Source: Chryseobacterium gleum (GTDB lineage Bacteria > Bacteroidota > Bacteroidia > UBA10329). From it: a DNA stretch of 64,000 nucleotides. Below the pieces are notes generated by a model. It saw only the letters and a list, made by a program, of their open reading frames with translations. It made no database searches and was not told where the DNA came from. A program made the translations under genes and the position numbers. Of this stretch, positions 4,446 through 53,830 are shown piece by piece. Location: contig CAMDOM010000013.1 of the NCBI GenBank assembly GCA_945903645.1, positions 485-64,484 on the forward strand. Reading direction: 5' to 3'. Numbering within the stretch: the first letter of the stretch is position 1; each line of letters opens with the position of its first letter.

Positions 4446-5153
4446 CTACAGTTCCATTCTATTCCACGTCACCGATTTCCAAATTTCCACCACTTCGCTC
4501 ACAGCCAAGTTGTAGGGTTTGAATGTGGGATTGGTAGACACCAGTTGCAGTGTGCCATTGGTGGCAATGGCGATGTACACCAGTTTGAACACCACGCCAT
4601 CGTTTCGGGTAACGATAATGCAAGGTGTGCCGGGTTTTATGGTGCTCCAGTCCTCCACAAAAGCGCCAGTAACCCATGCGCCATTGGGAATGGGCAACAT
4701 CGAATCGCCTTTGAGTTGGAAGCAACGATAGGTTTTTTCTCTCGGAAGAAAAGGCAATTGAAAGCGCGGTAGCTGCCCAATAAAATCGGGGTCGCCATAG
4801 CCGTTGGCATAGCCTGCTTGGGCCTTGGTGCCTACAAGCTCGATATTTTCGTTGCCATTTTTATCTACAGTCACCGTTAGCAGCCGCAGCTTTTGGCCTG
4901 TGATGTCGATATCCATGCCGCGCTCCACCTCCGAAAGTTGAAATGCCGAAAGTTTGCTAAGGTCGTAGCGCACCAAGGCATCGAGGCTCATTTTGAAATA
5001 GTCGGCCATGCGCATCAACTTGGCAAAAGGCGGCTGCACCCCTTTTTCGTACCCAATAAGCGTGGTGCGGCTTAGGTCGATGCTTTTTGCAAGTTCGGTT
5101 TGCGAAATGCGGCTGCGTTCGCGCAAAAATTTCAGGTTCGAAGAGAAAAACAT
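4446..5153 (-). CDS. LexA-like repressor: XRE-family HTH fused to S24 peptidase domain
   Basis: N-terminal HTH (LRERSRISQTELAKSIDLSRTTLIGYEKG). C-terminal S24 signature GDSM (FQLKGDSMLPIPNGAWV) with a downstream Lys (VFKLVYI). Divergent from a Y-family polymerase gene. Confidence 0.8.
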   Translation of the reverse strand: MFFSSNLKFLRERSRISQTELAKSIDLSRTTLIGYEKGVQPPFAKLMRMADYFKMSLDALVRYDLSKLSAFQLSEVERGMDIDITGQKLRLLTVTVDKNGNENIELVGTKAQAGYANGYGDPDFIGQLPRFQLPFLPREKTYRCFQLKGDSMLPIPNGAWVTGAFVEDWSTIKPGTPCIIVTRNDGVVFKLVYIAIATNGTLQLVSTNPTFKPYNLAVSEVVEIWKSVTWNRMEL

Positions 5154-5185
5154 GCTTTTTTATTTGGTGGCGAAGATAAAGAATG

Positions 5186-5223
5186 TCTACATTATGGACT
5201 TTAATGTGTCGATATTATAGACT
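5186..5223. promoter_or_regulatory. candidate operator: two direct copies of AATGT..GTCNANATTATNGAC between the LexA-like gene and dinB
   Basis: gtctacattatggac at 5186-5200 and gtcgatattatagac at 5209-5223. Each has inverted GTC/GAC ends around an ATTAT core. They sit in the 78-bp divergent intergenic region. Confidence 0.35.
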
Positions 5224-5231
5224 ACTACGTT

Positions 5232-6440
5232 TTGCCCTCCATCATTCATATCGACCTTGATTCCTTTTTCGTTTCGTGCGAGCGGTTGTTGGATAGCAGC
5301 CTCATGCATCGGCCTGTGTTGATTGGTGGTACATCCGATCGCGGAGTGGTGGCTTCGTGCAGCTACGAAGCGCGGGCGTTTGGTGTGCATGCGGCTATGC
5401 CCATGCGCATGGCGCGGCAGTTGTGTCCGGAGGCCGTGGTTATTCGCGGCAATAGCGGCACCTACAGTAAGTTTTCGCACATGGTTACCGACATTATTCG
5501 TGATCAATCTCCTCTATTTGAAAAATCGTCTATCGATGAATTTTATATCGATGTAACGGGCATGGATCGATTTTTTGGGTGCTACAAATGGGGACAAGAA
5601 CTGCGTGAACGCATCATTCGCGAAACACATTTGCCTATATCTTTTGCGCTATCTACCAGCAAAACTGTAGCTAAAGTGGGCACGGGCGAGGCCAAACCCA
5701 ACAATCATAGAGAAATTCCGAAGAATACAGAAAAGAGTTTTTTGGCTCCGCTGTCGGTAAAGAAAATTCCGATGGTGGGCGATCAAACCTATCGCATGTT
5801 GCGCAGCATGGGCATCGAGCAGGTGCGCACTGTGCAAGAAATGCCAGTAGAACTTATGGAACGCGTGATGGGAAAACCTGGCCTATCGCTATGGCACAAA
5901 GCGCAGGGCATCGATAATTCACCCATTGTGCCGTTTCACGAACGAAAATCCATCTCGCTTGAACGCACATTTGAGCGCGACACCACCGATTTGGTGAAAC
6001 TGAAAAGCATTATCCGCGCCATGGCCGAAAGCTTGGCGTATCAGTTGCGCAACGGGAATAAACTGACGGCTTGTGTATCGGTAAAAATTCGCTATTCCGA
6101 TTTTCAAACCCATAGCCGACAGCGCAGTATAGCCTACACCAGTTCCGACCACACCTTAATAAGTGCTGTGGAAGAGTTGTTTGACCAACTTTTCGACCGC
6201 AGAGTTCTTATTCGTTTGGTAGGTGTGCGCTTTAGCCATTTGGTGGGTGGCGGCCAGCAAATAAACCTTTTTGATGATAGCGAGAAGATGCTAAAACTCT
6301 ATCAAGCCATGGATTTGATGCGCAATCGTTATGGGCAAGATGCAGTGAAACGCGCTGTGACTATGGGTTCCAAAGGCTTGGGCGGCATGAATCCCTTCAA
6401 TGGCGAACCGCCCATCATACCCGCGCATCGCAGGTCATAA
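5232..6440 (+). CDS. dinB: DNA polymerase IV (Y-family, DinB)
   Basis: 402 aa; N-terminus IIHIDLDSFFVSCERL and the SIDEFYIDVTG catalytic motif typical of DinB/UmuC; non-ATG (TTG-type) start per the ORF track. Confidence 0.9.
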   Translation: MPSIIHIDLDSFFVSCERLLDSSLMHRPVLIGGTSDRGVVASCSYEARAFGVHAAMPMRMARQLCPEAVVIRGNSGTYSKFSHMVTDIIRDQSPLFEKSSIDEFYIDVTGMDRFFGCYKWGQELRERIIRETHLPISFALSTSKTVAKVGTGEAKPNNHREIPKNTEKSFLAPLSVKKIPMVGDQTYRMLRSMGIEQVRTVQEMPVELMERVMGKPGLSLWHKAQGIDNSPIVPFHERKSISLERTFERDTTDLVKLKSIIRAMAESLAYQLRNGNKLTACVSVKIRYSDFQTHSRQRSIAYTSSDHTLISAVEELFDQLFDRRVLIRLVGVRFSHLVGGGQQINLFDDSEKMLKLYQAMDLMRNRYGQDAVKRAVTMGSKGLGGMNPFNGEPPIIPAHRRS

Positions 6441-37816: not shown

Positions 37817-38545
37817 GTGGTTGAGAATCAGTTCCCTTTGCTTGAAGGAAGAGATGTAGATCGCTACCAAGTGAAATGGGACAATAAATGGGTTAAATAC
37901 GGCTTTCATTTAGCTGAACCTCGAAACTTAGAGTTATTTCAGGATGAGCGATTGCTTGCAAGAAGAACAATGGGTGAAAAAATTATCGCAGCATGGTGTA
38001 ATGAGGATATGATTTCGAATGCCTTGTTGCATGTGGTAAAAATTCCCTCAAATTATTCTGGGAAGTCGGTTTTAAGTATTGTCATATCCAAGTTATTGGC
38101 GTATTACTTCAGAAAAATGTCAGGAAGAGATGACAAAGCTTTTCCAGAGATTAAAGTGCACCAACTTCGTTCACTACCAATCATGTTTGACTGTAATCAT
38201 GATTTTAAGGTAGATTCAATTATGACATCTGTAAAAGATTTTGAAGAATCAGTTTCTAACCTTTTGAATTTACTCCAAACCCAATTCGACATCCCGAAAC
38301 CGAGCACGAAGTTGCAGCAGTGGCCGAGTTTAGATTTTAAGGGCTTTATGGCAGAGTTGGGCAAGGCCAAGGTGGTGTTGAGCTTAGAGAAACAGGAGGA
38401 ATGGATGGCTTACTTCACTAAAAAGAAAACAGAAGCCAACGCCCTGCAAAGTGAAATAGATAGAATAGATAAAGAGATTGATAAGATGGTGTATGGGTTG
38501 TATGGGCTTACACAAGAAGAAATCGCCATAGTTGAGAACGCATAA
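37817..38545 (+). pseudogene. C-terminal target-recognition fragment of a type IIG restriction-modification enzyme (TaqI_C-like), N-terminal domains missing
   Basis: LLEGRDVDRYQVKWDNKWVKYG matches the GxDIxRY motif of TaqI-like C-terminal specificity domains. C-terminus ...MVYGLYGLTQEEIAIVENA is typical of these enzymes. An in-frame TAA lies five codons upstream of the GTG start (37802-37804). No MTase or nuclease domain is present in 37602-37816. Confidence 0.45.
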
Positions 38546-38621
38546 AAACCCCGATGATCGCTTCGTGAATACCTTATTCCATTTCATTTTGCCAGTCGCA
38601 AATTGATAGTATGGTGCATGG

Positions 38622-38718
38622 GTTGTAGAGACGTTGCATGCAACGCCTCTACAACCAAATTCCGATAACCTATAGAGACGTTGCATGCAACGTCTCCACC
38701 GCATGCAACGTCTCTACC
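38622..38718. repeat. REP palindromes (GTAGAGACGTTGCATGCAACGTCTCTAC core), two or more copies, immediately 5' of the RAYT gene
   Basis: 38622-38655 is a 34-bp near-perfect palindrome; 38683-38718 has a second copy with the internal duplication gcatgcaacgtctc x2. Confidence 0.65.
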
Positions 38719-38739: not shown

Positions 38740-39330
38740 ATGGCCGATCTATTTCGCGACAAATACCGCGTCCCGTCTGCCCGCGCCCCATGGTGGGATT
38801 ATGGGCGCGATGCTGCCTATTTCATCACCATCTGCACCCAAGACCGTCAACATTTCTTCGGAGAGGTAGAGCAAGGGGAGATGCTTCTCACGGAGATTGG
38901 ACAGATTGCCCATGATTGTTGGTATACCATACCTGACCATTTTCCATTTGTTCACCTTCATGAATTCGTGGTGATGCCAAATCATGTGCATGGCATTGTC
39001 ATCATTGATCGGTATGGATCTGGTCTTCCGCCTGCAGAGACGTTGCATGTTGTGGAGACGTTGCATGCAACGTCTCTACCACCACAACCACCCAAAAACG
39101 AAAAAATGGCAGCCATATCCCCTAAATCAGGGTCGTTGTCCACCATAATCAGGTCATACAAATCTGCGGTATCAAAACAGGCGCGCGCTATCCATGCCGA
39201 TTTTGCATGGCAATCGCGTTTTCATGAACACATCATCCGTGATACCCAGAAACTCGAAAAGATCCGTTTTTACATCCTGAACAACCCTTTGTTGTGGGAA
39301 AAGGACAAATTCAATCTGAATAATCAGTAA
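38740..39330 (+). mobile_element. REP-associated tyrosine transposase (RAYT, IS200/Y1 HUH family)
   Basis: N-terminus MADLFRDKYRVPSARAPWWDYGRDAAYFITICT; HUH motif MPNHVHGIV; C-terminal WQSRFHEHIIRDTQKLEKIRFYILNNPLLW aligning with the catalytic-Tyr region of E. coli TnpA_REP; flanked by its REPs. Start at 38740 (tracked ORF 38638 reads through REPs). Confidence 0.8.
39034..39090. repeat. REP copy embedded in-frame inside the RAYT coding sequence
   Basis: gcagagacgttgcatgttgtggagacgttgcatgcaacgtctctacc encodes PAETLHVVETLHATSLP between the HUH motif and the catalytic region. Confidence 0.55.
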
Positions 39331-39404
39331 TCCTTCAAAACCTGCATTAAAATGCTCAGTCGGATTAAGTCTTCCGAAGGATTACTCGTGTGGAACTAGA
39401 CGCT

Positions 39405-39535
39405 GCCTGACTAAGTGTTATCATGCTCGTTGCAGCGTTTCCAAGGGGTATCTTCAAGGGAATAGTGCACGCACAGTTTTCTACATTCGGCAGAGAGATT
39501 GCTGCGCTAAGTAGTAACTGGGCAAAACCCGCACA
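39405..39535. repeat. intergenic repeat R1 (repeat family: ...CTAAGTGTT..GTTGCAGCGTTCC.AAGGGGT.TCTTCAA.GGAAtAgTaCACGC.CAGTTTTC.ACATTCGGCA.AGAGA..GCTGCGCT.AGTAGTAACTGGGCAA)
   Basis: About 90% identical over about 65 nt to 40920-40985 in the same orientation on the other side of the nuclease gene. Shares the CTAAGTGTT/GTTGCAGCGTTCC modules with repeats at 41.3-47.3 kb. Confidence 0.5.
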
Positions 39536-39542
39536 GCCGTTG

Positions 39543-40811
39543 TTACAATTCTGCACTAACTTCCACAGCCTTCCCATTCCCAATATACATGGTTGGCTTT
39601 CCGCCCAAATCTGCAATTCTGCCATTAACGGCTATGCGTTTACCGTCTAAAAATTCAACGGGGTCATACTCAAAATTTATAAGGTCTTCTTTTTTAATGA
39701 ATATCGTAAAAATTTCATTGGGGTATTGCTTATCCAAATTCAATAGCACATTCCCAGCACGGCTCGCGCGGCCACTTACCACTTTACCCACAACGGTGGA
39801 GTTTTTGCTACCTCCCGCGGCACGCGCAGCCATAATGGTGCTAATCTGCCCGCGCTTTAGTTGCTCAATGGGCACAGGCGGCACATCGCCACTTGCTACT
39901 TCGCTAAACCAATCGCTCGTAATTTTTTGGTGGGCTATTTCAGCCTTTTCATCGGCTCGCAGTGCCGTAAAAAAAGATAAACCTGTCAGGTGTTCAACGC
40001 TGTCAATGTCCACGGCATAAAGTTCTAAAGGCTTTGTGCCCGGTGCATTGGGCAACACAAAACCAATGGCTTTCATCTGCACTCTATCCAGCACAACCTT
40101 CCAATAATAGTTCGGGATGCTCACTTTGTTTATGCCTCGTTCTATTCTGGGCAAACCATCAGTGAGTATTGGCCCCGTCACCACATACAACATACTACCG
40201 GGATGCTGATAGATATACTCCCGTATTTTATCTTCCAAATCACCCCAAATGCCGCGGTTAAAATCACCTAACTGCGGGCTCATATTGCTATACAAATAGC
40301 TTTCGCTTAGGGCCTGCGCACTCCATCGAAAATCTGCACTGGGTGCCAAATGGCCGCGATCATATCCAAAGCCATCATAGGTATAGCTGCTGTCGGGTTG
40401 CAGCTGCTTCAAAAAATAATCGGCTTCTACCGCGCTGCCTGTGGTTACCAAACTATCCGCCCTAAAATCGTTGGTACGGCTGACGGCACCTTCTGTAACA
40501 TCAGGCAAAATAATATGTGCCACCCATCGAGCTTGTTCATGTTTTTCAGCATACGCTAGTGCCATGCTGCTATGCCATAACAACTGATCGCCCGGTTTTA
40601 CATCTGGCAATCCAATTTGCATCAGGTCATTACCTACTTTTTCCAGTTTCAGTGTTTCACGGTGTCTGTTCAATATACCTTTCTGCGCTTCCAGATGGGC
40701 AATGTTCTTTTCCGTTTCTGCAATGTTTTTCGCTATACTTTGAGCAGAAGCAAAGCTTCCTCCCAAGCAAAAAATCCAAATAAAATAAAATGCTACGAAT
40801 GCTTTTTTCAA
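39543..40811 (-). CDS. secreted DNA/RNA non-specific endonuclease (Serratia NucA-like DRGH family) with C-terminal OB-fold-like domain
   Basis: Signal peptide MKKAFVAFYFIWIFCLGGSFASA; catalytic DRGHLAPSADF motif; C-terminal region (GKVVSGRASRAGNVLLNL...IAVNGRIADLGGKPTMYIGN) looks OB-fold-like. Confidence 0.8.
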   Translation of the reverse strand: MKKAFVAFYFIWIFCLGGSFASAQSIAKNIAETEKNIAHLEAQKGILNRHRETLKLEKVGNDLMQIGLPDVKPGDQLLWHSSMALAYAEKHEQARWVAHIILPDVTEGAVSRTNDFRADSLVTTGSAVEADYFLKQLQPDSSYTYDGFGYDRGHLAPSADFRWSAQALSESYLYSNMSPQLGDFNRGIWGDLEDKIREYIYQHPGSMLYVVTGPILTDGLPRIERGINKVSIPNYYWKVVLDRVQMKAIGFVLPNAPGTKPLELYAVDIDSVEHLTGLSFFTALRADEKAEIAHQKITSDWFSEVASGDVPPVPIEQLKRGQISTIMAARAAGGSKNSTVVGKVVSGRASRAGNVLLNLDKQYPNEIFTIFIKKEDLINFEYDPVEFLDGKRIAVNGRIADLGGKPTMYIGNGKAVEVSAEL

Positions 40812-40876
40812 GCGTCCAAGTTACTGCCGTAATAGAGCTGATAGTTTTAATTGTTCGTAATCAGTATGTGAAGTTA

Positions 40877-40990
40877 TCCCGCAGGTGTGCGGGTTAAGTG
40901 TGCCGCAGAGTCTCTTCAATGGAACATTACACGCTCAGTTTTCCACATTCGGCATAGAGAACGCTGCGCTTAGTAGTAACTGGGCAATAA
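40877..40990. repeat. intergenic repeat R2 (direct copy of R1) with 6-bp-stem hairpin cccgcaggtgtgcggg
   Basis: tcttcaatggaacattacacgctcagttttccacattcggcatagagaacgctgcgcttagtagtaactgggcaa aligns with R1. Confidence 0.5.
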
Positions 40991-41095
40991 ACAAAACCAA
41001 AAATGCTACTAACCTCCGCCCAAGAAACCTACCACTACAATAGGACCAAAGGCCGAGTGGCATTAGCCTTATCTTTGTTTGTTAAAATTTAGGTC

Positions 41096-41332
41096 ATGAC
41101 AGCAAAACAGCTTATAGCGCTACTGCAACAGTTGCCTCCCGATACTCAAATGGTAGTAAGAGGATATGAAGATGGCTACAACGACATATCGCAATTGAAG
41201 CATAGGAAAGTGCAACCCCACGAAGGAAGAGCAGATGACTGGAATGGAAGTTATCAGGATGCTACCAGCACCAAATCGGCAACAATTGCAGTAGAGCTTT
41301 TTGGTAAAAACACAGCGGCTAAATCCAACTAA
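41096..41332 (+). CDS. hypothetical small protein (78 aa), first module of the cassette-like array
   Basis: ORF preceded by a TATCTTTG -7-like box (41070-41077) and followed by repeat R3; no recognisable domain. Confidence 0.4.
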   Translation: MTAKQLIALLQQLPPDTQMVVRGYEDGYNDISQLKHRKVQPHEGRADDWNGSYQDATSTKSATIAVELFGKNTAAKSN

Positions 41333-41440
41333 TGCCCCCGCTGGCGCAAGTGTTCCTAATGCGCTTGGTGCAGCGACCAAAGGGGGTCTCTTTATCCCGT
41401 TCCGTTCCTTTCCGAAGCTTCGGAACTGACATCTGACTAG
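41333..41440. repeat. repeat R3 (CCCCCGCTGG..CAAGTGTTCC..GCGCTTGGTGCAGCG..AAGGGGGTCTCTTTATCC + GTTCC/TTCCGAAGCTTCGGAA palindrome)
   Basis: Imperfect long-range inverted symmetry (ccccc..tgg.cgc..aag / ctt..gcagcg..ccaaaggggg) plus the perfect 16-bp palindrome ttccgaagcttcggaa. Confidence 0.5.
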
Positions 41441-41472
41441 AATACTTATATTTGATTCCAAACTTTTTAGTT

Positions 41473-41703
41473 ATGACCAGACAAGCAATTATTGAACGCA
41501 CCGTAAAGGCGATAAATCAGCTACCTGAGGAAAAAGCGGAAGAAATCTCTGATTTTGCCGATTTTGTCATTAAACGTTATGAGGAAAGTGTTTTGATAAA
41601 AGGAGTGCAGACCCTTAGCGCACAAAGTCATGCATTTGATTTCTTAAACGAGGAAGAGGACCTGTATTCCTTGTCCGACTTAAAAAAGGTGTATAATGGC
41701 TAA
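41473..41703 (+). CDS. putative antitoxin of the MazF/PemK module
   Basis: 76 aa from MTRQAIIERTVKAINQLPEEKAEEISDFADFVIKRYEES... Its 3' end overlaps the toxin start by 8 nt. Tracked ORF begins at TTG 41452; a TATATTTG box at 41447-41454 favours the ATG at 41473. Confidence 0.5.
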   Translation: MTRQAIIERTVKAINQLPEEKAEEISDFADFVIKRYEESVLIKGVQTLSAQSHAFDFLNEEEDLYSLSDLKKVYNG

Positions 41704-42013
41704 AGGTGACGTTGTGTTAGTAACCTTTCCGTTTACAGATTTAACAGGTAGTAAATTACGCCCTGCTGTTGTTTTAACAGAGACATCACTTGATGTAACT
41801 GTTTGCTTTATTACAACCCAAATTGGGTGGCAAGAAAGTACTGATGTAGTACTAAATCCATCTATGGTTTCAGGAATTAGAAAGCAATCGCTTATCAGAA
41901 CAAGTAAAATTGCGACAATAGATCAAACGTTGTGCAAGGGCCTTTTGGGTATTTTGACAGCTATAGAAATTCAAGAGCTTAACCAAAAATTAAAGCAACT
42001 GCTCCAGTTGTAA
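41696..42013 (+). CDS. type II toxin, MazF/PemK family endoribonuclease
   Basis: MAKGDVVLVTFPFTDLTGSKLRPAVVLTE matches the PemK/MazF N-terminal signature (GDIVxVxFPFTDxSGxKxRPAxVL). Confidence 0.8.
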   Translation: MAKGDVVLVTFPFTDLTGSKLRPAVVLTETSLDVTVCFITTQIGWQESTDVVLNPSMVSGIRKQSLIRTSKIATIDQTLCKGLLGILTAIEIQELNQKLKQLLQL

Positions 42014-42039
42014 ATTATGGGCGACCTTTCGTGCTAAGC

Positions 42040-42360
42040 TGTGCAAAGCTGGCTAAGAACAGCTCCCTTTCCGTTCCGTTCCGAAGCTTCGGAACTTCGG
42101 AAACAAGCGAAGTTGCCCCAGCTGGACTAAGTGTTCCTGATGCGCTCATTGAAGAGTTCCGTAGGGTCTCTTCATTGGAATAGTACACGGACGGTTTGTA
42201 ACCGTCCACAACCCCTAGCTTAATTAAGTGTACCCGATGCGCTCGTTGCAGCATTCCGAAGGGGTCTCTTTATCCGAACCCGTTCCGTTCCTTTCCGTTC
42301 CGAAGCTTCGGAACTTCGGAAACAAGCGAAGTTGCACAACAAACCCTAAGCTTTTGTTAC
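42040..42360. repeat. repeat R4: two tandem units of the family (each: GTTCCGAAGCTTCGGAAC palindrome ... CCCCAGCTGGACTAAGTGTTCC.GATGCGCTC.TTG.AG..TTCCG.AGGGGTCTCTT...)
   Basis: Unit a 42046-42210 contains hairpins gaagagttccgtagggtctcttc and ggacggtttgtaaccgtcc. Unit b 42215-42350 repeats the ...TTAAGTGTACCCGATGCGCTCGTTGCAGCATTCCGAAGGGGTCTCTTTATCC.. GTTCCGTTCCTTTCCGTTCCGAAGCTTCGGAAC motif. Confidence 0.55.
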
Positions 42361-42404
42361 CCTTTTAATCATGCCTAAAATGGAGAAAAGCCTACTTTTG
42401 AGAT

Positions 42405-42965
42405 ATGAAAAACATCGATGGTAAAAGCTTGGAAAATGCTTTTCGGTTATTTGAATCGGGTGATATAACCACTATAGAAATTGGCACAACCAAAGGGTTG
42501 CAGCAACTACATCGCTATCTATTTGATGGCCTGTTTGAGTTTGCAGGCGAGTTGCGGACCAAAAACATATCAAAAGGCGGTTTTCGGTTTGCGACAGCTT
42601 TGTATTTGAATGAGATTTTGGCAAAAGTGGAATTGATGCCCGAAAACACATTTGAAGAGATAATTACCAAATATGTAGAAATGAATATTGCCCACCCTTT
42701 TATGGAAGGCAATGGCAGAACAATGCGGATATGGCTCGATATGATTTTGAAAGCACGCCTGCAAAAAATGGTAAATTGGCAGTTTGTGAGTAAAGAACTT
42801 TACCTACAAGCCATGGAACGCAGCCCCATTAACGATTTGGAATTAAGAACCTTGCTTGTTGCCAATTTAACGGACGAAGTAAACAACCGCGAAATCATTT
42901 TTAAGGGCATAGAGCAATCCTATTATTACGAAGGCTACGAAAAAGGAAGCGATGATGAAGAGTAG
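42405..42965 (+). CDS. Fic-family protein (AMPylator/Doc-like toxin fold)
   Basis: Canonical Fic motif [12 protein letters not shown]; 186 aa. Confidence 0.85.
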
Positions 42966-43025
42966 CCCCAACCGGCTAGTGTTCCCGGGCTTGTTGCAGC
43001 GTTCCTTAGAAAGTAGGGTAATCTT
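42966..43025. repeat. repeat R5 (short member: CCCCAACCGGCTAGTGTTCCCGGGCTTGTTGCAGCGTTCC...)
   Basis: Shares GTGTTCC and GTTGCAGCGTTCC modules with R1/R3/R4. Confidence 0.45.
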
Positions 43026-43112
43026 TCATAATTAAAAATTCCTAATTCCTAGCTCCCTTGCCAAGGTTAGGTGTGGCAATAGCCTTATCTTTGCTTTATA
43101 AATGCATAGGTC

Positions 43113-43530
43113 ATGAGCGAGGAAGACATCCGCTGGAAGCAGCATTTTGCCAATTACGACAGGGCTTTTGAGCGCCTGCACGAATCAATGGAAGAAAAGG
43201 AACTAAACGAGCTGGAGCGCAATGGTTTGGTGCAGCGCTTTGAGTCTACACTCGAGCTGGCCTGGAAAACCATGAAAGATTTTTTAGAAGAAAAGGGCTT
43301 TGCCTTCAAGCCATCGCCCAAAGACACCTTCCGTCAGGCACAGCAAGCGCAATATATTACCTATGCACAAGCGCTCATTGACGGGCTTGACCTTCGCAAC
43401 GAACTAGCGCACGATTATGATGGGTAACAAGTTTCTAAAAGCCGAAACACATCTGCGCACCGAAACCTTTCCTGCGCTCAAAAACCTACACCGTTTCTTT
43501 GTGCAGCAGCTAAACGAAACTTAAGGCAAT
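43113..43530 (+). pseudogene. HEPN-like nucleotidyltransferase substrate-binding protein (HI0074 family) with a +1 frameshift near 43425
   Basis: ORF 43113..43427 (104 aa) ends ...RNELAHDYDG*. The next frame (43426-43527) reads NKFLKAETHLRTETFPALKNLHRFFVQQLNET*, a plausible family C-terminus ending 10 nt before the NTase start. Confidence 0.5.
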
Positions 43531-43537
43531 CTGTTCA

Positions 43538-43915
43538 ATGACTGATAAAATCCCCTCGCTTTACGGTTTAACAGAGCGCAATATTAAAACCCTGTATGCT
43601 GTTTTTAGTAAGTATTCAGATATCAAACAGGTGCATCTGTTCGGCAGTCGCGCCAAAGGCAACTTTAAAATAGGTAGCGATATAGATTTGGCTGTAATGA
43701 ACAAAGAGTTACAAGCCATAACTATAGCCCACGTGCTTGCAGATTGTGCCGAAAGCGACCTACCGGTGGCAGTTGATATAGTAGATTTTAATACCCTTAC
43801 CAACCCCGAATTTATAGACCATATACAGCGCGTAGGTGTTTTGTTTTATCCCCCAGCAGATCTAAGTGTTCCCAATGCTAGTTGCCCCCGCCCGCCAAAG
43901 TCCGTGCGAAGATGA
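43538..43915 (+). CDS. minimal nucleotidyltransferase (MNT; HI0073-like), partner of the HEPN-like protein
   Basis: GSRAKGNFKIGSDIDLAV motif (GSxxxGxxxxxSDxDL). The last ~17 codons (…LSVPNASCPRPPKSVRR) are encoded by repeat R6. Confidence 0.75.
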   Translation: MTDKIPSLYGLTERNIKTLYAVFSKYSDIKQVHLFGSRAKGNFKIGSDIDLAVMNKELQAITIAHVLADCAESDLPVAVDIVDFNTLTNPEFIDHIQRVGVLFYPPADLSVPNASCPRPPKSVRR

Positions 43916-43920
43916 CGCTC
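43850..43920. repeat. repeat R6 overlapping the 3' end of the MNT gene
   Basis: agatctaagtgttcccaatgctagttgcccccgcccgcc carries the CTAAGTGTTCC module. Confidence 0.4.
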
Positions 43921-44048
43921 TCCATACCCAGTAAGGACGAGTGTTTGCTCTTCTAAAATCGTTTCATTTAGCATCATTTACGCTGTTTTACACTCGTTAA
44001 TGCGATTGTTGTTAAGGGTATGCGCAGCTTTGCGGAAAATCACGAACC

Positions 44049-44948
44049 ATGACCTACAATCGTTCAATTTCCACTATGCTCTCCATGCTACTCATCTTTG
44101 GTTCATGCAGCAGTCAAGAAACCGCCAATGAGCAACCAGCAGCGCCTAACAAAGAAGCTGTGAAGAAGCAAACCCACAGCTACGGAGGCTGGTATTGTCC
44201 AGACAATTTCGGTTTTGTTCCTGTGGATATACAAAAGCTTAGTGAAGTTCCTGCCATTGCCAATCGGCTACCAACAGATCAGGAACTGACCGACCACAAA
44301 TCGCTCATCAAAGTCGATACAGCGCTTTATCCCGATGCACGGGCTTTGAACATGAACCTTCCACGTGTAGCTAGCATTTACTCCGAACACAAGGGCATGA
44401 GCGAGCTCATTATCGTCATTCAGGCCATTGTGGTGGAAGAAGATACCGTTGTGGGCTATCGTTTTATGAACGGTGGAAATGGTTCTGCACGGTTGAGCGA
44501 GGTTAGTTTTCTATCGGATGATGCGATTGCAAAGATGGGTTCGCAACCCTTCTTTTATTCCAAGGCGGTGCTCCATGCCACACCTGAGAACATCTGGAAT
44601 GCCCTCATCAAAACCGATTACTTCCTAAAACTTGGGGTGAAATTCGACAGGAAAGTGTTCTTCTCTTCTGCATGGAATCCAAATTCTGAAACGAAATTGA
44701 CTCTAGACACCAAGTCCGAAAAGGCAACAGGCTATGTTGGAGTGGTGTACGGCAATTTTTACTTGCAAATCGATTACCTTAAAGATGAGGTTCATTATTC
44801 AGAGAAGATGCTCCTCGCTGAGAATATGGAAGACCACACCACCGAACTCTACTTTGCAAGCGGTCCTTTCCCAAAGGACTTTGCTAAACAAAAGTTGAAA
44901 TGGGATAATTGGGTTGAAGCAGTGTCGAAGGCCAGCGATACTCACTGA
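44049..44948 (+). CDS. hypothetical lipoprotein
   Basis: Lipobox LIFGSCSS after a hydrophobic leader; 299 aa; no confident domain call. Confidence 0.55.
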   Translation: MTYNRSISTMLSMLLIFGSCSSQETANEQPAAPNKEAVKKQTHSYGGWYCPDNFGFVPVDIQKLSEVPAIANRLPTDQELTDHKSLIKVDTALYPDARALNMNLPRVASIYSEHKGMSELIIVIQAIVVEEDTVVGYRFMNGGNGSARLSEVSFLSDDAIAKMGSQPFFYSKAVLHATPENIWNALIKTDYFLKLGVKFDRKVFFSSAWNPNSETKLTLDTKSEKATGYVGVVYGNFYLQIDYLKDEVHYSEKMLLAENMEDHTTELYFASGPFPKDFAKQKLKWDNWVEAVSKASDTH

Positions 44949-45060
44949 CCCCCGGCTGATGCAGGTGTTCACGCTGGGCTCGTTGCACCGACCAAACCGA
45001 CCAACAGGAGCTCATTGCGGAACGCAATAACGGAGCTCACTGCAGCATGCACAGCCAAAA
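44949..45060. repeat. repeat R7 (~105 bp, imperfect terminal inverted repeats cggctgatgcag...ctgcagcatgcacagcc; internal hairpin attgcg-gaa-cgcaat)
   Basis: cccccggctgatgcaggtgttcacgctgggctcgttgcaccgaccaaaccgaccaacaggagctcattgcggaacgcaataacggagctcactgcagcatgcacagcc. An inverted near-copy is at 53630-53720. Confidence 0.5.
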
Positions 45061-45133
45061 AGTTACGCAGTGCCCCGAGCAACGGAAGTGTTGATTGTAA
45101 GACAGCATTGTTCGAAAAGCATCTGGGAAATGC

Positions 45134-47074
45134 TCAGTTTTTATGTACTACCAATTTAGCAACTTGGCGAACGGCCTGTCCGGTTATCTCAACGAAATAG
45201 AGCCCACTAGCCAAAGACGGTAGCATAAATGCATTATTCTGAATTGCTGAAATCGGGTAGGAATAGACCATCTTTCCGCTAAGATTGTGTAGCTGTATAG
45301 AAGATACCCGAGGATCAACTCGGGATAGCGAAAAAGATTCGGAGACTGGATTTGGGAGAATTTCAATGCGTTCAAACTTCGGATTCTCCGAAATAGAGGT
45401 GATACTATTGTTTGCCGAAATAATTCGAAGTTCTGGATCGAAAACCACATCATTCACCTCAAAGGGCAATGGTGTGGTAAAAACTTGTCCACTAAAGGTA
45501 TGATTGAATGTGATGATGGTATCTTGTGACTGATTTGAAAATCGAATAGGTATCGGAAGTTCAAAGAAGTCTACGCTGCTATGCGATTGGCTTTGATTAA
45601 CAGTTAAACTTACCACACCATTGGGAGTCTGCTGCCAATCAACGGTATACGAAGGGTAGCCCTCACCTGTAAACCAGTCGTCAAAATACCATGAAAGATT
45701 TTGACCACTTGCTGCTTCCATGTTCGCTTTAAGCTCTGGAGTTCGTGCAAATGCGTAGGCATTTCCTGCATCAGTAAGGTAATTGCGCGTGGCAGCAAAA
45801 AATGCGCTATCGCCAATTACCCAGCGCATCATGTGCAATACCATGGCTCCCTTGGCATAAGATAGCCTACCACTAAAAATACGCCCAATATCGGACGTGT
45901 CACCACATAGCACCGAGCCATCTGGTTGGCTTACCACATTGGCAATGCGCTGCTCTTTGAAAGACATCCAGTATTGCGGCAAAAGAAATTCGTAGCACAA
46001 ACCTGAGAGATAGGTAGCGAATCCTTCATTGAGCCAAATATCTTCCCAGCTACCACAGGTCACTTTGTCGCCAAACCAATGATGGGCCAGTTCATGCGCC
46101 ATAAGTTCGTAATTCCAACCTCCCATAAATGTAATGGTTTGATGCTCCATGCCACCGCCCCAACCCATTTGAGCATGACCATATTTCTCCAACTTAAAAG
46201 GATAATCCCCAAAAAGCGATGCATACAGTTGCATTTGCGCCACCACATCTGGTGTTACGCTTTGAGCGGTGGCAAAATCTTCAGGATAAACGTAATTAAC
46301 CACTTCCACGGTGTGATTGTCAAAGGGTACAAGGTTGGTATACACTTCGTAGTCCGTTACTGCCATGCAAATGAGATACGTTGCTATTGGATAGCGATGC
46401 TTCCAATGAAATACTTTGTTGGAACCTTCATCAGTTTCTGAAACCAGAAGCCCATTGCTTACTGCTTTATAGGCTTGTGGAGTGGTAATAAATACATCCA
46501 TAGAATCCACTTTATCTTGCAAATTCTGTTTGCAGGGCCACCAGTCTTTTGCACCATAAGGCTCCGAAAGCGTCCAAATTATAGGGGCTCCATTGTGTGT
46601 AGACTGCACAAACGAACCTAAACCAGTATTTGGAGGCGTTCCTTCATAGTTTATCAATACCGAATCTAGCTGCATTGCAGCAACCTCAATGGGTAAAGTA
46701 ATACGAAGTATATCGCCAGCTATTTGACTAAACTGCGCAGGCGAACCATGATAAGTAACGCTGTTTACTATCAAATCCGTACTCAAATCAAACTCCAAGT
46801 GACTTAAGTTTTCTGTGGGCTTAAAATGAGAACTAACATTTCCCGTTATATAATTCACATTTGGATTCACCTCCCAATCCATTCGCTGATACACAAGGTC
46901 GTAATTGTTTGTTGCCTGGCGTTCGGGCGCCTGCAGCAAGCCCAAATAGGCTTTTTCTTCCAATTCATATAGTCGTGAAAGGTCTGTAGGCTGTGCCAAA
47001 CACATAGTAGAAACTGGGGAAAATAGGAGCGAAGTGATTATAATTCTGAGCATGACATGAAACAGGTTGTTCAA
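45134..47074 (-). CDS. M1-family zinc aminopeptidase with T9SS C-terminal sorting domain
   Basis: HEXXH (HELAHHWFGD) plus downstream WLNEGFATY Glu; signal peptide; C-terminal ~80 aa beta-sandwich CTD (...LYFVEITGQAVRQVAKLVVHK) typical of T9SS type-A cargo. Confidence 0.85.
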   Translation of the reverse strand: MNNLFHVMLRIIITSLLFSPVSTMCLAQPTDLSRLYELEEKAYLGLLQAPERQATNNYDLVYQRMDWEVNPNVNYITGNVSSHFKPTENLSHLEFDLSTDLIVNSVTYHGSPAQFSQIAGDILRITLPIEVAAMQLDSVLINYEGTPPNTGLGSFVQSTHNGAPIIWTLSEPYGAKDWWPCKQNLQDKVDSMDVFITTPQAYKAVSNGLLVSETDEGSNKVFHWKHRYPIATYLICMAVTDYEVYTNLVPFDNHTVEVVNYVYPEDFATAQSVTPDVVAQMQLYASLFGDYPFKLEKYGHAQMGWGGGMEHQTITFMGGWNYELMAHELAHHWFGDKVTCGSWEDIWLNEGFATYLSGLCYEFLLPQYWMSFKEQRIANVVSQPDGSVLCGDTSDIGRIFSGRLSYAKGAMVLHMMRWVIGDSAFFAATRNYLTDAGNAYAFARTPELKANMEAASGQNLSWYFDDWFTGEGYPSYTVDWQQTPNGVVSLTVNQSQSHSSVDFFELPIPIRFSNQSQDTIITFNHTFSGQVFTTPLPFEVNDVVFDPELRIISANNSITSISENPKFERIEILPNPVSESFSLSRVDPRVSSIQLHNLSGKMVYSYPISAIQNNAFMLPSLASGLYFVEITGQAVRQVAKLVVHKN

Positions 47075-47094
47075 ATGTACATGAAAAATGAAGC

Positions 47095-47280
47095 ATCACG
47101 CAGCTAGTAAACCCCCCAGCTGGACTAAGTGTTCCAGCGCTCGTTGAACCAAACGTAGGGAGCTCATTGCGGTATGCAATAACAAAAAGTTCTGGAGTGT
47201 CTGCCCAGCGCTAAGTTGTGACTTCGCAATAATCTCACCCCCACCCAGCCAGACTAAGTGTTTCTTTCCTTAGGCCAAAG
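47095..47280. repeat. repeat R8 (CCCCCCAGCTGGACTAAGTGTTCCAGCGCTCGTTG ... GGGAGCTCATTGCGGTATGCAAT ... CCAGCCAGACTAAGTGTTTC)
   Basis: Contains two ACTAAGTGTT modules and the GAGCTCATTGCGG.A.GCAAT hairpin module shared with R7/R9. Confidence 0.5.
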
Positions 47281-53589: not shown

Positions 53590-53830
53590 ACAGACAATAG
53601 ACACAGATTTTATTGCGTTTCGCAATGAGCTCCGTTATTGCGTTCCGCAATGATTCCGAGACTTCGCAACTCGTTGGTCGGTTTGGTCGGTTCAGTGAAA
53701 TTACTGCGTTCCGCAATGAACTCCCGTTGGTCGGTTCAGTGAAGTTCTGTGTTTCTTTGACTGTCACCCTGTTTTCCGCTCGCGCGAGGTTCTGCCTCGT
53801 GCAGAGTATTCCGAACCGTTCACGGTTCAA
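53590..53830. repeat. repeat cluster R9: inverted copies of the R7/R8 modules with internal tandem duplication and several hairpins
   Basis: aatgagctccgttattgcgttccgcaatga ... gttggtcggtttggtcggttcagtgaa is the reverse complement of ttcactgaaccgaccaaaccgaccaac..cattgcggaacgcaataacggagctc in R7 (44980-45040). attgcgttccgcaatga occurs three times; palindromes ctcgcgcgag and gaaccgttcacggttc. Confidence 0.5.

Follow-up and report, generated by a model that had tools for sequence, protein, structure and literature searches.

Extragenic repeats linked to REP-associated tyrosine transposases (RAYTs), which are domesticated transposases, are already known, and a repetitive extragenic palindrome (REP) of the Bacteroidota, that of RAYT subclass 2.6, has been noted in the literature. 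RAYT genes of this subclass are flanked by atypical structures, copies of which lie elsewhere in the genome (Quentin et al. 2018, PMC6006769). In Aequorivita, the subclass 2.6 REPs combine a GCTAG/GCTGG foot with CGCGAGCG-TCC-CGCTCGTG (PMC6006769, Suppl. Table S1), and for group 5 of Bertels et al. (2017, PMC5581495) the flanking 16-mers number ∼31 copies per replicon. So far these REPs have been mentioned merely in passing, as 'atypical structures', and RAYT/REP systems are usually viewed as vertically inherited residents of the core genome. Here we analyze a 64,000-nt stretch of contig CAMDOM010000013.1 (the window), which holds a variable accessory-gene island of 9 kb with a repeat unit in every spacer. 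The unit shares with subclass 2.6 REPs the foot GCT[AG]G and the stem arm CGCnnGnG, and the two come from the same phylum. Subclass 2.6 REPs flank the RAYT gene as inverted copies, with further copies elsewhere in the genome. In contrast, the window copies comprise the foot and 5′ arm only, followed by a lineage-specific body of ∼55 nt; all of them are direct and clustered in the island, and no cognate RAYT was found within the 64 kb.

Other described systems resemble the array in part. The REPs of E. coli and Pseudomonas, with the bacterial interspersed mosaic elements (BIMEs) and REP doublets forming hairpins (REPINs) built from them, presumably owe their mobility to a Y1 transposase. Like the window units, they are extragenic, multi-copy, mosaic with short motifs, placed at stop codons and clustered in tandem. 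REPs that abut or overlap stop codons, and tandem REP clusters reiterated together with flanking DNA, are established REP behaviour (PMC3733652). Classical REPs, however, mark the core genome, with mobile or strain-specific DNA forming 'REP deserts' in Pseudomonas, and BIMEs and REPINs are inverted REP pairs dispersed in that core (PMC3390384), whereas the window units are all direct, hairpin-less and confined to an island. Arrays of attC sites, including clusters of attC sites lacking integrons (CALINs), share with the window the one-strand iteration of open reading frame (ORF) plus repeat, the toxin–antitoxin (TA) cargo, the repeat at the stop codon and the block-wise presence or absence between genomes. 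They differ in that the window revealed no R''/R' sites, conserved bulged hairpin or integrase, and has several repeats per spacer, empty tandems and varying breakpoints. The ends of IS200/IS605 insertion sequences are substrates of Y1 HUH enzymes; their subterminal hairpins are strand-specific and in direct orientation, and target duplication is absent (PMC6006769, background section). Unlike these, the segments that the window shares with other loci have no delimiting pair of left and right ends, and hairpins are absent. Palindrome-associated transposable elements (PATEs) are non-autonomous derivatives of IS200/IS605. In Neisseria, intergenic mosaic elements (dRS3/RS arrays) and 'minimal mobile elements' are spacer repeat arrays that coincide with exchange of gene blocks between strains; dRS3 is a phage integration site, and the repeat sequences, the phylum and the associated enzyme all differ from those of the window.

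A hairpin-less, co-oriented, island-restricted array at module boundaries was not found in the literature searched and appears to be undescribed. We think that it probably represents a REP/BIME-type, RAYT-derived repeat family that colonised the flexible accessory island and was amplified within it. The locus would then display a derived form of REP, one that has shed its hairpin and come to lie, co-oriented, at every gene junction of a TA/defence island. Its units coincide with the edges of near-identical blocks that are found again in different genomic surroundings, and also between lineages in which the neighbouring genes are saturated at synonymous sites.

The repeat family and its probable kinship with subclass 2.6 REPs

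Copies of the repeat were defined as matches to an nhmmer profile built from its shared 5′ part, the head. Eight were found in the window (E = 1e-9 to 4e-14), starting at positions 39404, 41335, 42116, 42213, 42966, 43851, 44950 and 47114, which shows that the repeat family predicted for this DNA is real. To these can be added a partial copy at 47244 and a footless unit at 40866–40995. From 39.3 to 47.3 kb, eight spacers in succession each contain one copy or more, and every copy is on the + strand. The original prediction had recognised an array at 41000–45130; the array exists but is larger than that, and it encloses two minus-strand genes, for a non-specific endonuclease and an M1 aminopeptidase. 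In the remaining 56 kb of the window, the head profile found no copy. Head density is nine in 1.9 kb of island spacer versus zero in 5.0 kb of spacer elsewhere in the window. The 9–10 window copies are clustered, as seen over 64 kb of this genome, and all are extragenic or overlap the 3′ end of a gene. When up to three mismatches were allowed, the 22-nt head motif matched seven times in the island, compared to 0–2 times in shuffles of the whole window. It is perfect, or has at most one mismatch, in units R3, R4a, R6, R7 and R8.

Alignment with copies of related loci gave a unit of ∼80 nt, with the consensus CCCCnGCTGG-nnn-AAGTGTTCC-cgATGCGCTCGTTGCAGCGTTCCGcAGGGGTCTCTTCAatGGAAyAnnACACGcAC (in a shorter rendering, its start reads CCCCnGCTGG-nnn-AAGTGTTCC-GATGCGCTCGTTGCAGCGTTCC-GGGGTCTCTT...). 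Two subtypes can be told apart by their ending, either ...GGAATAGTACAC or ...TATCC...TTCCGAAGCTTCGGAA, and truncation after 22–60 nt is frequent. The whole is a BIME-like mosaic in which units are joined in varying order with the palindromes TTCCGAAGCTTCGGAA and TCATTGCGGAACGCAATGA, a CCGACCAAACCGACCAAC module and a long tail ...GCGCTAAGTAGTAACTGGGCAATAAACAAAACC. A perfect palindrome common to the repeats had been predicted, and it is present as TTCCGAAGCTTCGGAA at 41410, 42079 and 42298. Head units were also inspected for the hallmarks of DDE-type miniature inverted-repeat transposable elements (MITEs), and showed neither terminal inverted repeats nor target-site duplications.

Each gene of the array was originally described as being followed by a repeat right after its stop codon. 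This was confirmed for the 78-residue ORF (head start 2 nt after the stop), the Fic gene (0 nt) and the lipoprotein gene (0–1 nt). It does not apply to the MNT gene, whose 3′ end is overlapped by a head, or to MazF, where repeat material begins ∼18 nt past the stop and the first head lies 102 nt downstream. Across ∼40 independent heads, five start at most 2 nt from a co-oriented stop codon. No target consensus for head insertion was apparent in the 5′ flanks. Among the heads adjoining or overlapping a stop codon, five of seven independent cases are in the frame encoding P-P-A-G-x-S-V-P (p ∼0.05; the heads considered for this frame include R5, R6 and R7 of the window, L030 4852 and L013 1994, where L-numbers denote comparison loci from other genomes or metagenome contigs). 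This frame preference may be due to chance.

The relationship to RAYTs emerged when CCCCnGCTGGnnnAAGTGTTCC was sought in one genome of each GTDB species, which gave 39 loci. About 17 of them look like chance matches in GC-rich coding DNA of other phyla, and ∼22 lie in Bacteroidota (Chitinophagaceae, Segetibacter, Ferruginibacter, Cyclobacteriaceae and Flavobacteriales). Seventeen of the Bacteroidota elements have a perfect (9/9) complementary arm 10–44 nt downstream of the 22-mer; the loop between the two measures 3–40 nt, and a second small hairpin follows. The 3′ arm covaries with the variable triplet, as in GTTTAAGTG...CACTTAAA versus GCGCAAGTG...CACTTGTG. A RAYT-like gene lies within ∼150 nt of the head in six of the ∼22 loci: in L019 it stands between two inverted heads, and in L011, L017, L018, L020 and L022 heads adjoin it. 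These genes encode the motifs NHVHLI, FWQQDNH and Y[IL]H[EQ]NP, and their best NCBIfam match is REP_Tyr_transpos. The combination of foot and arm, covarying hairpin and adjoining RAYT gene is the signature of the REP of RAYT subclass 2.6 (Bertels group 5). The window unit starts with a C-run and a GCT[AG]G foot, followed by the stem arm CGCnnGnG / nnnAAGTG (nnnAAGTGTTCC). Judged by this sequence match, the 22-nt head corresponds to the foot and 5′ stem arm of the REP flanking RAYT (Y1 HUH) genes of subclass 2.6 in Chitinophagaceae, Cyclobacteriaceae and other Bacteroidota. Because copies of the window's lineage keep the foot and 5′ arm and lack the 3′ arm, we regard them as REP-derived half sites, not canonical REPs. 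A lineage-specific MITE or BIME family at gene 3′ ends, one of the outcomes anticipated earlier, comes close to this evidence, except that the 5′ end of the unit is shared across Bacteroidota subclass 2.6 REPs.

The repeats had also been called hairpin-rich, with long-range inverted symmetry, a description that fared poorly. Folding of ten units as single-stranded DNA gave z-scores from +0.35 to −3.6, and R4a alone was more stable than all 200 of its shuffles. The window units revealed no shared architecture and no significant long hairpin, the exception being the local hairpin of R4a.

A RAYT gene is indeed present nearby, as noted in the original prediction, which saw no other recombinase there. 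It lies at 38740–39330 on the + strand (NCBIfam NF047646, E = 8e-17, below the curated cut-off), and its motifs NHVH, WQ and YILNNP match those of subclass 2.4 (PMC6006769, Table 1). Upstream of it, at 38621–38718, are three copies of a palindrome, GTAGAGACGTTGCATGCAACGTCTCTAC, of the 'double-foot' type of subclass 2.4 REPs. Two more copies lie in frame inside the RAYT gene (39031–39084), where they encode ...ETLHVVETLHATSL...; insertion of a REP in tnpAREP is a hallmark of subclass 2.4 (PMC6006769). The REP of Runella/Solitalea, GTAGAGACAAGGCATGCCTTGTCTCTAC, has the same architecture as the GTAGAGACGTTGCATGCAACGTCTCTAC palindrome (PMC6006769, Suppl. Table S1). Since this RAYT is of subclass 2.4 and has its own, different REP, it is probably not the cognate enzyme of the array repeats.

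Gene-plus-repeat blocks in other genomes

Three gene-plus-head blocks of the window recur elsewhere beside other neighbours, namely HEPN–MNT, Fic and the M1 peptidase. JGI metagenomes scanned with a lineage-specific head pattern gave 12 matches, of which only L053 was informative, with L047 and L055 weakly so. L053 is a second array, in which TA-type genes are interspersed with seven co-oriented heads.

The HEPN–MNT–head block (window 43123–43878) is 96% identical to its counterparts in L053 and L062, and homology ends at 43878. Its neighbours in L053 are a fragment of an EEP nuclease and a Phd/Doc pair. Compared to each other, L062 and L053 are 98% identical up to 75 nt into the head and diverge beyond. 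Another HEPN–MNT pair, in L058, is 73% identical and stands beside a type I restriction–modification (RM) operon, without a head. The Fic block, consisting of leader, gene and a head at or near the stop codon, is found downstream of the hsdR C-terminus in L063/L064 (87% nucleotide identity) and also in L069. The R4a–R4b block is kept upstream of Fic in L063 (88%) and is also present in L053 (85%), and these two are 92% identical to each other. Remoter Fic homologues lie in RM operons or defence islands, without heads. A search of PLSDB and INPHARED with the array matched nothing but the Fic gene, and a scan of IMG/VR for the 22-mer gave 13 matches, all chance-like and in coding DNA.

For the M1 gene, a segment of the window (45125–47134) whose last ∼21 nt belong to the R8 head has 95% nucleotide identity to L041/L044/L045, compared to 77% for its flanks (75–79% for the AAA and VWA genes next to it). 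Third-codon-position identity is 90% for M1 versus 51% and 48% for AAA and VWA. These data point to a recent exchange of this 2-kb segment between lineages. In L041/L044/L045, M1 lies directly beside VWA and is inverted, the head occupies the same position relative to M1, and the 7.5-kb island is absent.

Independent presence or absence of modules among relatives, which the original prediction had called for, was thus seen for the HEPN–MNT, Fic and M1 blocks, so some cassette-like behaviour is real, with breakpoints that do not fall at a fixed site. On the repeat side, homology ends 0, ∼22, ∼28 or ∼75 nt into the unit; on the other side, its limit is a start codon or a point ∼10 nt beyond a stop codon. 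With limits so varied, there is no fixed crossover point. Nor do the shared segments span from head to head: HEPN–MNT reaches no further 5′ than its start codon, and the R7 head lies outside the M1 segment. Breakpoints that vary in this way are more in keeping with recombination at dispersed repeats than with the capture of cassettes at a specific site.

Origin and role of the array

Under the explanation that we favour, in which a RAYT-derived family colonised the island and was amplified there, the units would derive from the REP recognised by Bacteroidota subclass 2.6 (Bertels group 5) RAYTs. In this lineage the unit would have lost its 3′ arm, and its conserved body of ∼55 nt includes a short internal hairpin. 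Seeding may have occurred by strand-specific cut-and-paste of single-stranded DNA, catalysed by a Y1 HUH enzyme such as a RAYT. Such a mechanism would account for units that share one polarity, form head-to-tail tandems and lack target duplications, and the frequent starts right at stop codons would likewise fit Y1 seeding followed by local duplication. Such duplication would then have multiplied the units, as can be seen in the 60-nt duplication around R4a–R4b and in the module repeated at 41057 and 43073. Given the variable breakpoints, the units may now serve mainly as dispersed homology for block exchange. They would act as portable patches at which recombination, including recombination with incoming related DNA, swaps gene-plus-repeat blocks, and the island would take on the look of a cassette array with no need for an integrase or att site of its own. 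If the repeats just supply homology, the locus clearly illustrates how small repeats can organise a flexible island in nature.

Several observations weigh against this explanation. The distribution is the reverse of REP deserts, with heads concentrated in an accessory island and none in the other spacers. All nine heads (9/9) are direct, whereas classical BIMEs and REPINs alternate in orientation. The defining REP hairpin is missing from the window copies, whose best 3′ partner reaches at most 8/9 pairs, no better than in shuffles, and the same loss of the 3′ arm is seen in the copies of L053, L062, L063 and L044. Eight full units gave a weak consensus fold (−6.8 kcal/mol by RNAalifold), amounting to a single 7-bp internal stem with two compensatory changes. 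Three independent gene-plus-head blocks in new contexts are more modular than ordinary REP biology predicts. Finally, a subclass 2.6 RAYT was sought in the 64-kb window and in all array loci, L053 included, and none was found, which leaves any cognate enzyme in this genome putative. Because the hairpin is missing, the orientation strictly direct and the heads concentrated in accessory DNA, we keep two rival explanations under consideration.

One is that the units are immobile 3′-untranslated or spacer elements, possibly mRNA-stabilising or regulatory, which have been multiplied by unequal crossing-over, segmental duplication and gene conversion alone. They would travel passively with genes, and their likeness to RAYT-associated REPs would go back to a single ancestral insertion. 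We consider this unlikely. Local amplification has evidently left traces, including the 60-nt direct duplication that brackets R4a–R4b, the promoter-like module present at both 41057 and 43073, and the direct tandems of units; the island-restricted heads of uniform orientation and the retention of R4a–R4b as a two-unit block in L053 and L063 fit it as well. Yet units stand after many unrelated genes in several genomes, and they show subfamily structure and repeated independent truncations, always restarting at CCCC. In addition, a scan for intrinsic terminators and sigma-70 promoters revealed no enrichment and nothing inside the repeat units.

The other is that gene-plus-head blocks are moved as cassettes in a head-dependent manner, through a site other than attC, by a trans-acting Y1 HUH RAYT or another unrecognised recombinase. 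Half-REP heads would then be the working sites of a cassette-like exchange in Bacteroidota, either because a single-strand DNA enzyme cuts at the foot and arm or because recombination is targeted to the head. The regularity of the array speaks for this: all eight consecutive spacers have a unit on the + strand, whatever the orientation of the genes, and the seven co-oriented heads of L053 among TA-type genes form a second such array. Cargo together with the 5′ part of a head occurs in different contexts (three for HEPN–MNT, three for Fic, and M1 with the same head orientation), and it is in accessory DNA, not in core DNA, that heads are concentrated. Furthermore, the best-conserved part of the unit is exactly the RAYT foot and arm, and IS200/IS605 ends are also directly oriented on one strand. 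However, the breakpoints vary (0, ∼22, ∼28 and ∼75 nt into the head), segments in common fail to extend from one head to another, the hairpin bound by Y1 enzymes is absent from the window copies, and tandem units without cargo are common. In addition, no candidate enzyme was found near either array. On balance, both a head-dependent mobilisation and the more specific notion of half-REP heads as its working sites seem to us rather doubtful. If true, with the repeats as enzyme substrates, they would amount to a second, non-integron route to cassette arrays and give RAYT/REP systems a gene-shuffling role analogous to that of integrons, one that moves TA and defence genes and, as with the M1 peptidase, even housekeeping genes from array to array and from lineage to lineage.

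The original prediction had drawn attention to an attC-like capture system, and had itself remarked on the lack of an integrase and of canonical core sites. Both negatives were upheld. Pairs of R'' (RYYYAAC) and R' (GTTRRRY) sites 50–140 nt apart number zero on either strand of the eight spacers, with lone attC core motifs only at 40893 and 47143. No match to Phage_integrase was found in 50 ORFs of the window, a scan that excluded three very large ORFs, or in L053. A CALIN can exist without IntI. We nevertheless consider a sedentary chromosomal integron or CALIN with divergent attC sites highly improbable, as the small same-strand ORFs, the TA-type cargo and the repeats starting at stop codons are outweighed by the want of an R''/R' pair on either strand of any spacer, of a conserved bulged hairpin and of an IntI-like gene among the ORFs scanned in the 64 kb, by the presence of several units per spacer and of empty, ORF-less tandems, and by the tie between the motif and RAYT genes in other genomes. 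An attC array proper was ruled out on the same core-site, folding, tandem and integrase results. In practice, such arrays can be mistaken by eye for CALINs or attC arrays. A CRISPR-like array, remnants of tRNA/tmRNA att sites and a coding origin of the head were also considered and rejected. In the window and 15 related loci, no Rfam family reached its gathering threshold; matches with E ≤ 5 were weak, at chance level and outside the units. Two Rfam matches to group II introns in L018 are unrelated.

Individual units, genes and other repeats

The units, numbered R1 to R8 along the + strand, differ in completeness. R1 (39404–39530; nhmmer E = 5.5e-11) is a full-length unit by alignment, with a degenerate foot, head, middle and a tail ...GCGCTAAGTAGTAACTGGGCAA, and lies in the convergent spacer between the RAYT and endonuclease genes. 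R2 (40866–41039), which is 86% identical to R1, is without the CCCC-GCTGG foot, has an internal deletion and continues through the tail into a tail extension; its last 52 nt show 86.5% identity to L041/L044/L045 (blastn). R3 (41335–41432; E = 4e-13) is a type 2 head unit ending in the TTCCGAAGCTTCGGAA palindrome. The R4 complex (42031–42335) has two heads (E = 6e-13 and 4e-14). It starts with a 5′-truncated type 2 unit and a copied stretch from the beginning of the Fic leader (42057–42116), followed by R4a (42116–42212; type 1, with the hairpin ACGGACGGTTTGTAACCGTCC) and R4b (42213–42335; type 2). The 60-nt direct duplication that brackets R4a–R4b joins 42057–42116 to 42276–42335, with 90% identity. 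R5 (42966–43025; E = 4e-10) is a head unit directly after the Fic stop codon, degenerate beyond ∼45 nt, and R6 (43851–43890; E = 2e-10) is a head truncated after ∼28–40 nt. R7 (44949–45130; E = 2e-9) comprises a head of ∼40 nt, the CCGACCAAACCGACCAAC module, a palindrome GGAGCTCATTGCGGAACGCAATAACGGAGCTC (45007–45038) and a degenerate tail. In the divergent spacer between the M1 and bPH genes, R8 (47114–47270; E = 2e-13 and 0.05) consists of a head with a perfect 22-mer, a TCATTGCGGTATGCAATAAC palindrome, a tail-like segment and a second, degenerate head (47243). The tails of R1, R2 and R8 resemble a second head, which is direct and not inverted. Head-to-tail units with no ORF between them occur as R4a–R4b in the window and as five in a row in L053. 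The tandem junctions are exact, reading ...ACAT|CCCC in L053 and L063, as is R4a|R4b in the window.

ORF families were called with Pfam and NCBIfam profiles. The island cargo consists of an RM remnant, the RAYT, the nuclease, MazEF, Fic, HEPN–MNT, the lipoprotein and the exchanged peptidase. An ORF at 37817–38545 has a TaqI-like C-terminal specificity domain alone; it is probably the remnant of a type IIG RM gene and marks the left edge of the island. The DNA/RNA non-specific endonuclease gene (39543–40811, minus strand; Pfam PF01223, E = 6e-47) lies inside the array. From 41096 to 44948, the gene content and + strand originally read from the sequence were borne out by the ORF listing and the Pfam and NCBIfam matches, with the correction that the HEPN gene is frameshifted. 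The first gene (41096–41332), of 78 codons, encodes a hypothetical protein with no match in Pfam or NCBIfam. Next come a DUF2281-like antitoxin (41473–41703) and a PemK/MazF toxin (41696–42013), called with Pfam, which form a pair (41473–42013). The Fic gene (42405–42965) encodes a class III (NmFic-type) adenylyltransferase (NCBIfam NF046029, E = 1e-86, above the cut-off).

The HEPN gene (43113–43524, with an ORF of 43113–43427) matches the Pfam family NTase_sub_bind over profile positions 1–98 of 126 only. A frameshift near 43425, just past the Rx4H motif (...RNELAHDYDG*), puts the C-terminal 32 codons in the +1 frame; the MNT partner is intact. In L053, the intact HEPN orthologue has 136 residues and a nucleotide identity of 96%. 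The MNT nucleotidyltransferase gene (43538–43915; Pfam PF18765) draws its last ∼21 codons from the R6 head (...YPPADLSVPNAS...), giving a repeat-encoded C-terminal extension, and it likewise reads through into the head in L053 and L062. The lipoprotein gene (44049–44948) encodes 299 residues that match no family in Pfam or NCBIfam. A 1219-nt contig from another sample, L001, is identical to window 43788–45006, starting inside MNT and ending inside R7. Metagenome contigs with these modules (L001 and those holding P0121–P0127 and P0222–P0234) are typically 0.5–2.5 kb long; the repeats, or variation among neighbouring modules, may fragment metagenome assemblies. On the minus strand, the M1 aminopeptidase gene (45134–47074), inside the array, ends in a type IX secretion system tail.

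The consensus of the Bacteroidetes −7 promoter element is known, and from it we read a + strand module at 41057–41098, GTGGCAnTAGCCTTATCTTTG...AGGTCATGA, as a putative promoter or leader, with a Bacteroidetes-type TAnnTTTG box. This module of ∼45 nt is duplicated upstream of HEPN (43073–43115), with 87% identity, and each copy runs into the ATG of a gene, the two genes being unrelated. HEPN differs from its L053 orthologue in the first three codons, as if the leader-like module had replaced the 5′ end.

Other short repeats occur in and around the arrays. The TCATTGCGGAACGCAATGA palindrome is also present beyond the island, in the opposite orientation. The TCATTGCG palindrome family extends outside the island, to 53.6 kb (in the opposite orientation) and 63979, and the R7 palindrome has relatives at 47160–47189, 53610–53719 (minus orientation) and 63979. 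At 53600–53760 and 63979–63997 we found a second palindromic repeat family, TCATTGCGGAACGCAATAA, with the flank CCGACCAA(A)C. It is represented by three minus-orientation copies at 53.6 kb and one copy at 63979, and as a module embedded in R7 and R8. In L053 (3900–3960) and L063 (1530–1560), head units contain short inserts bracketed by 7–8-nt TTCCG[CT]AG duplications, which suggests a separate MITE-like element with target-site duplication, nested in the units. Another spacer palindrome family, TCCCGATAGCTATCGGGACGGGA, lies between small HNH and NYN accessory genes in L044 (9780–9810, 14280–14320 and 15245–15275). Far from the island, at 4446–6440 of the window, a gene for a LexA-like repressor with helix-turn-helix and S24 domains adjoins the divergently oriented gene of a Y-family (IMS) DNA polymerase; together they form an SOS-type cassette that has no relation to the array.

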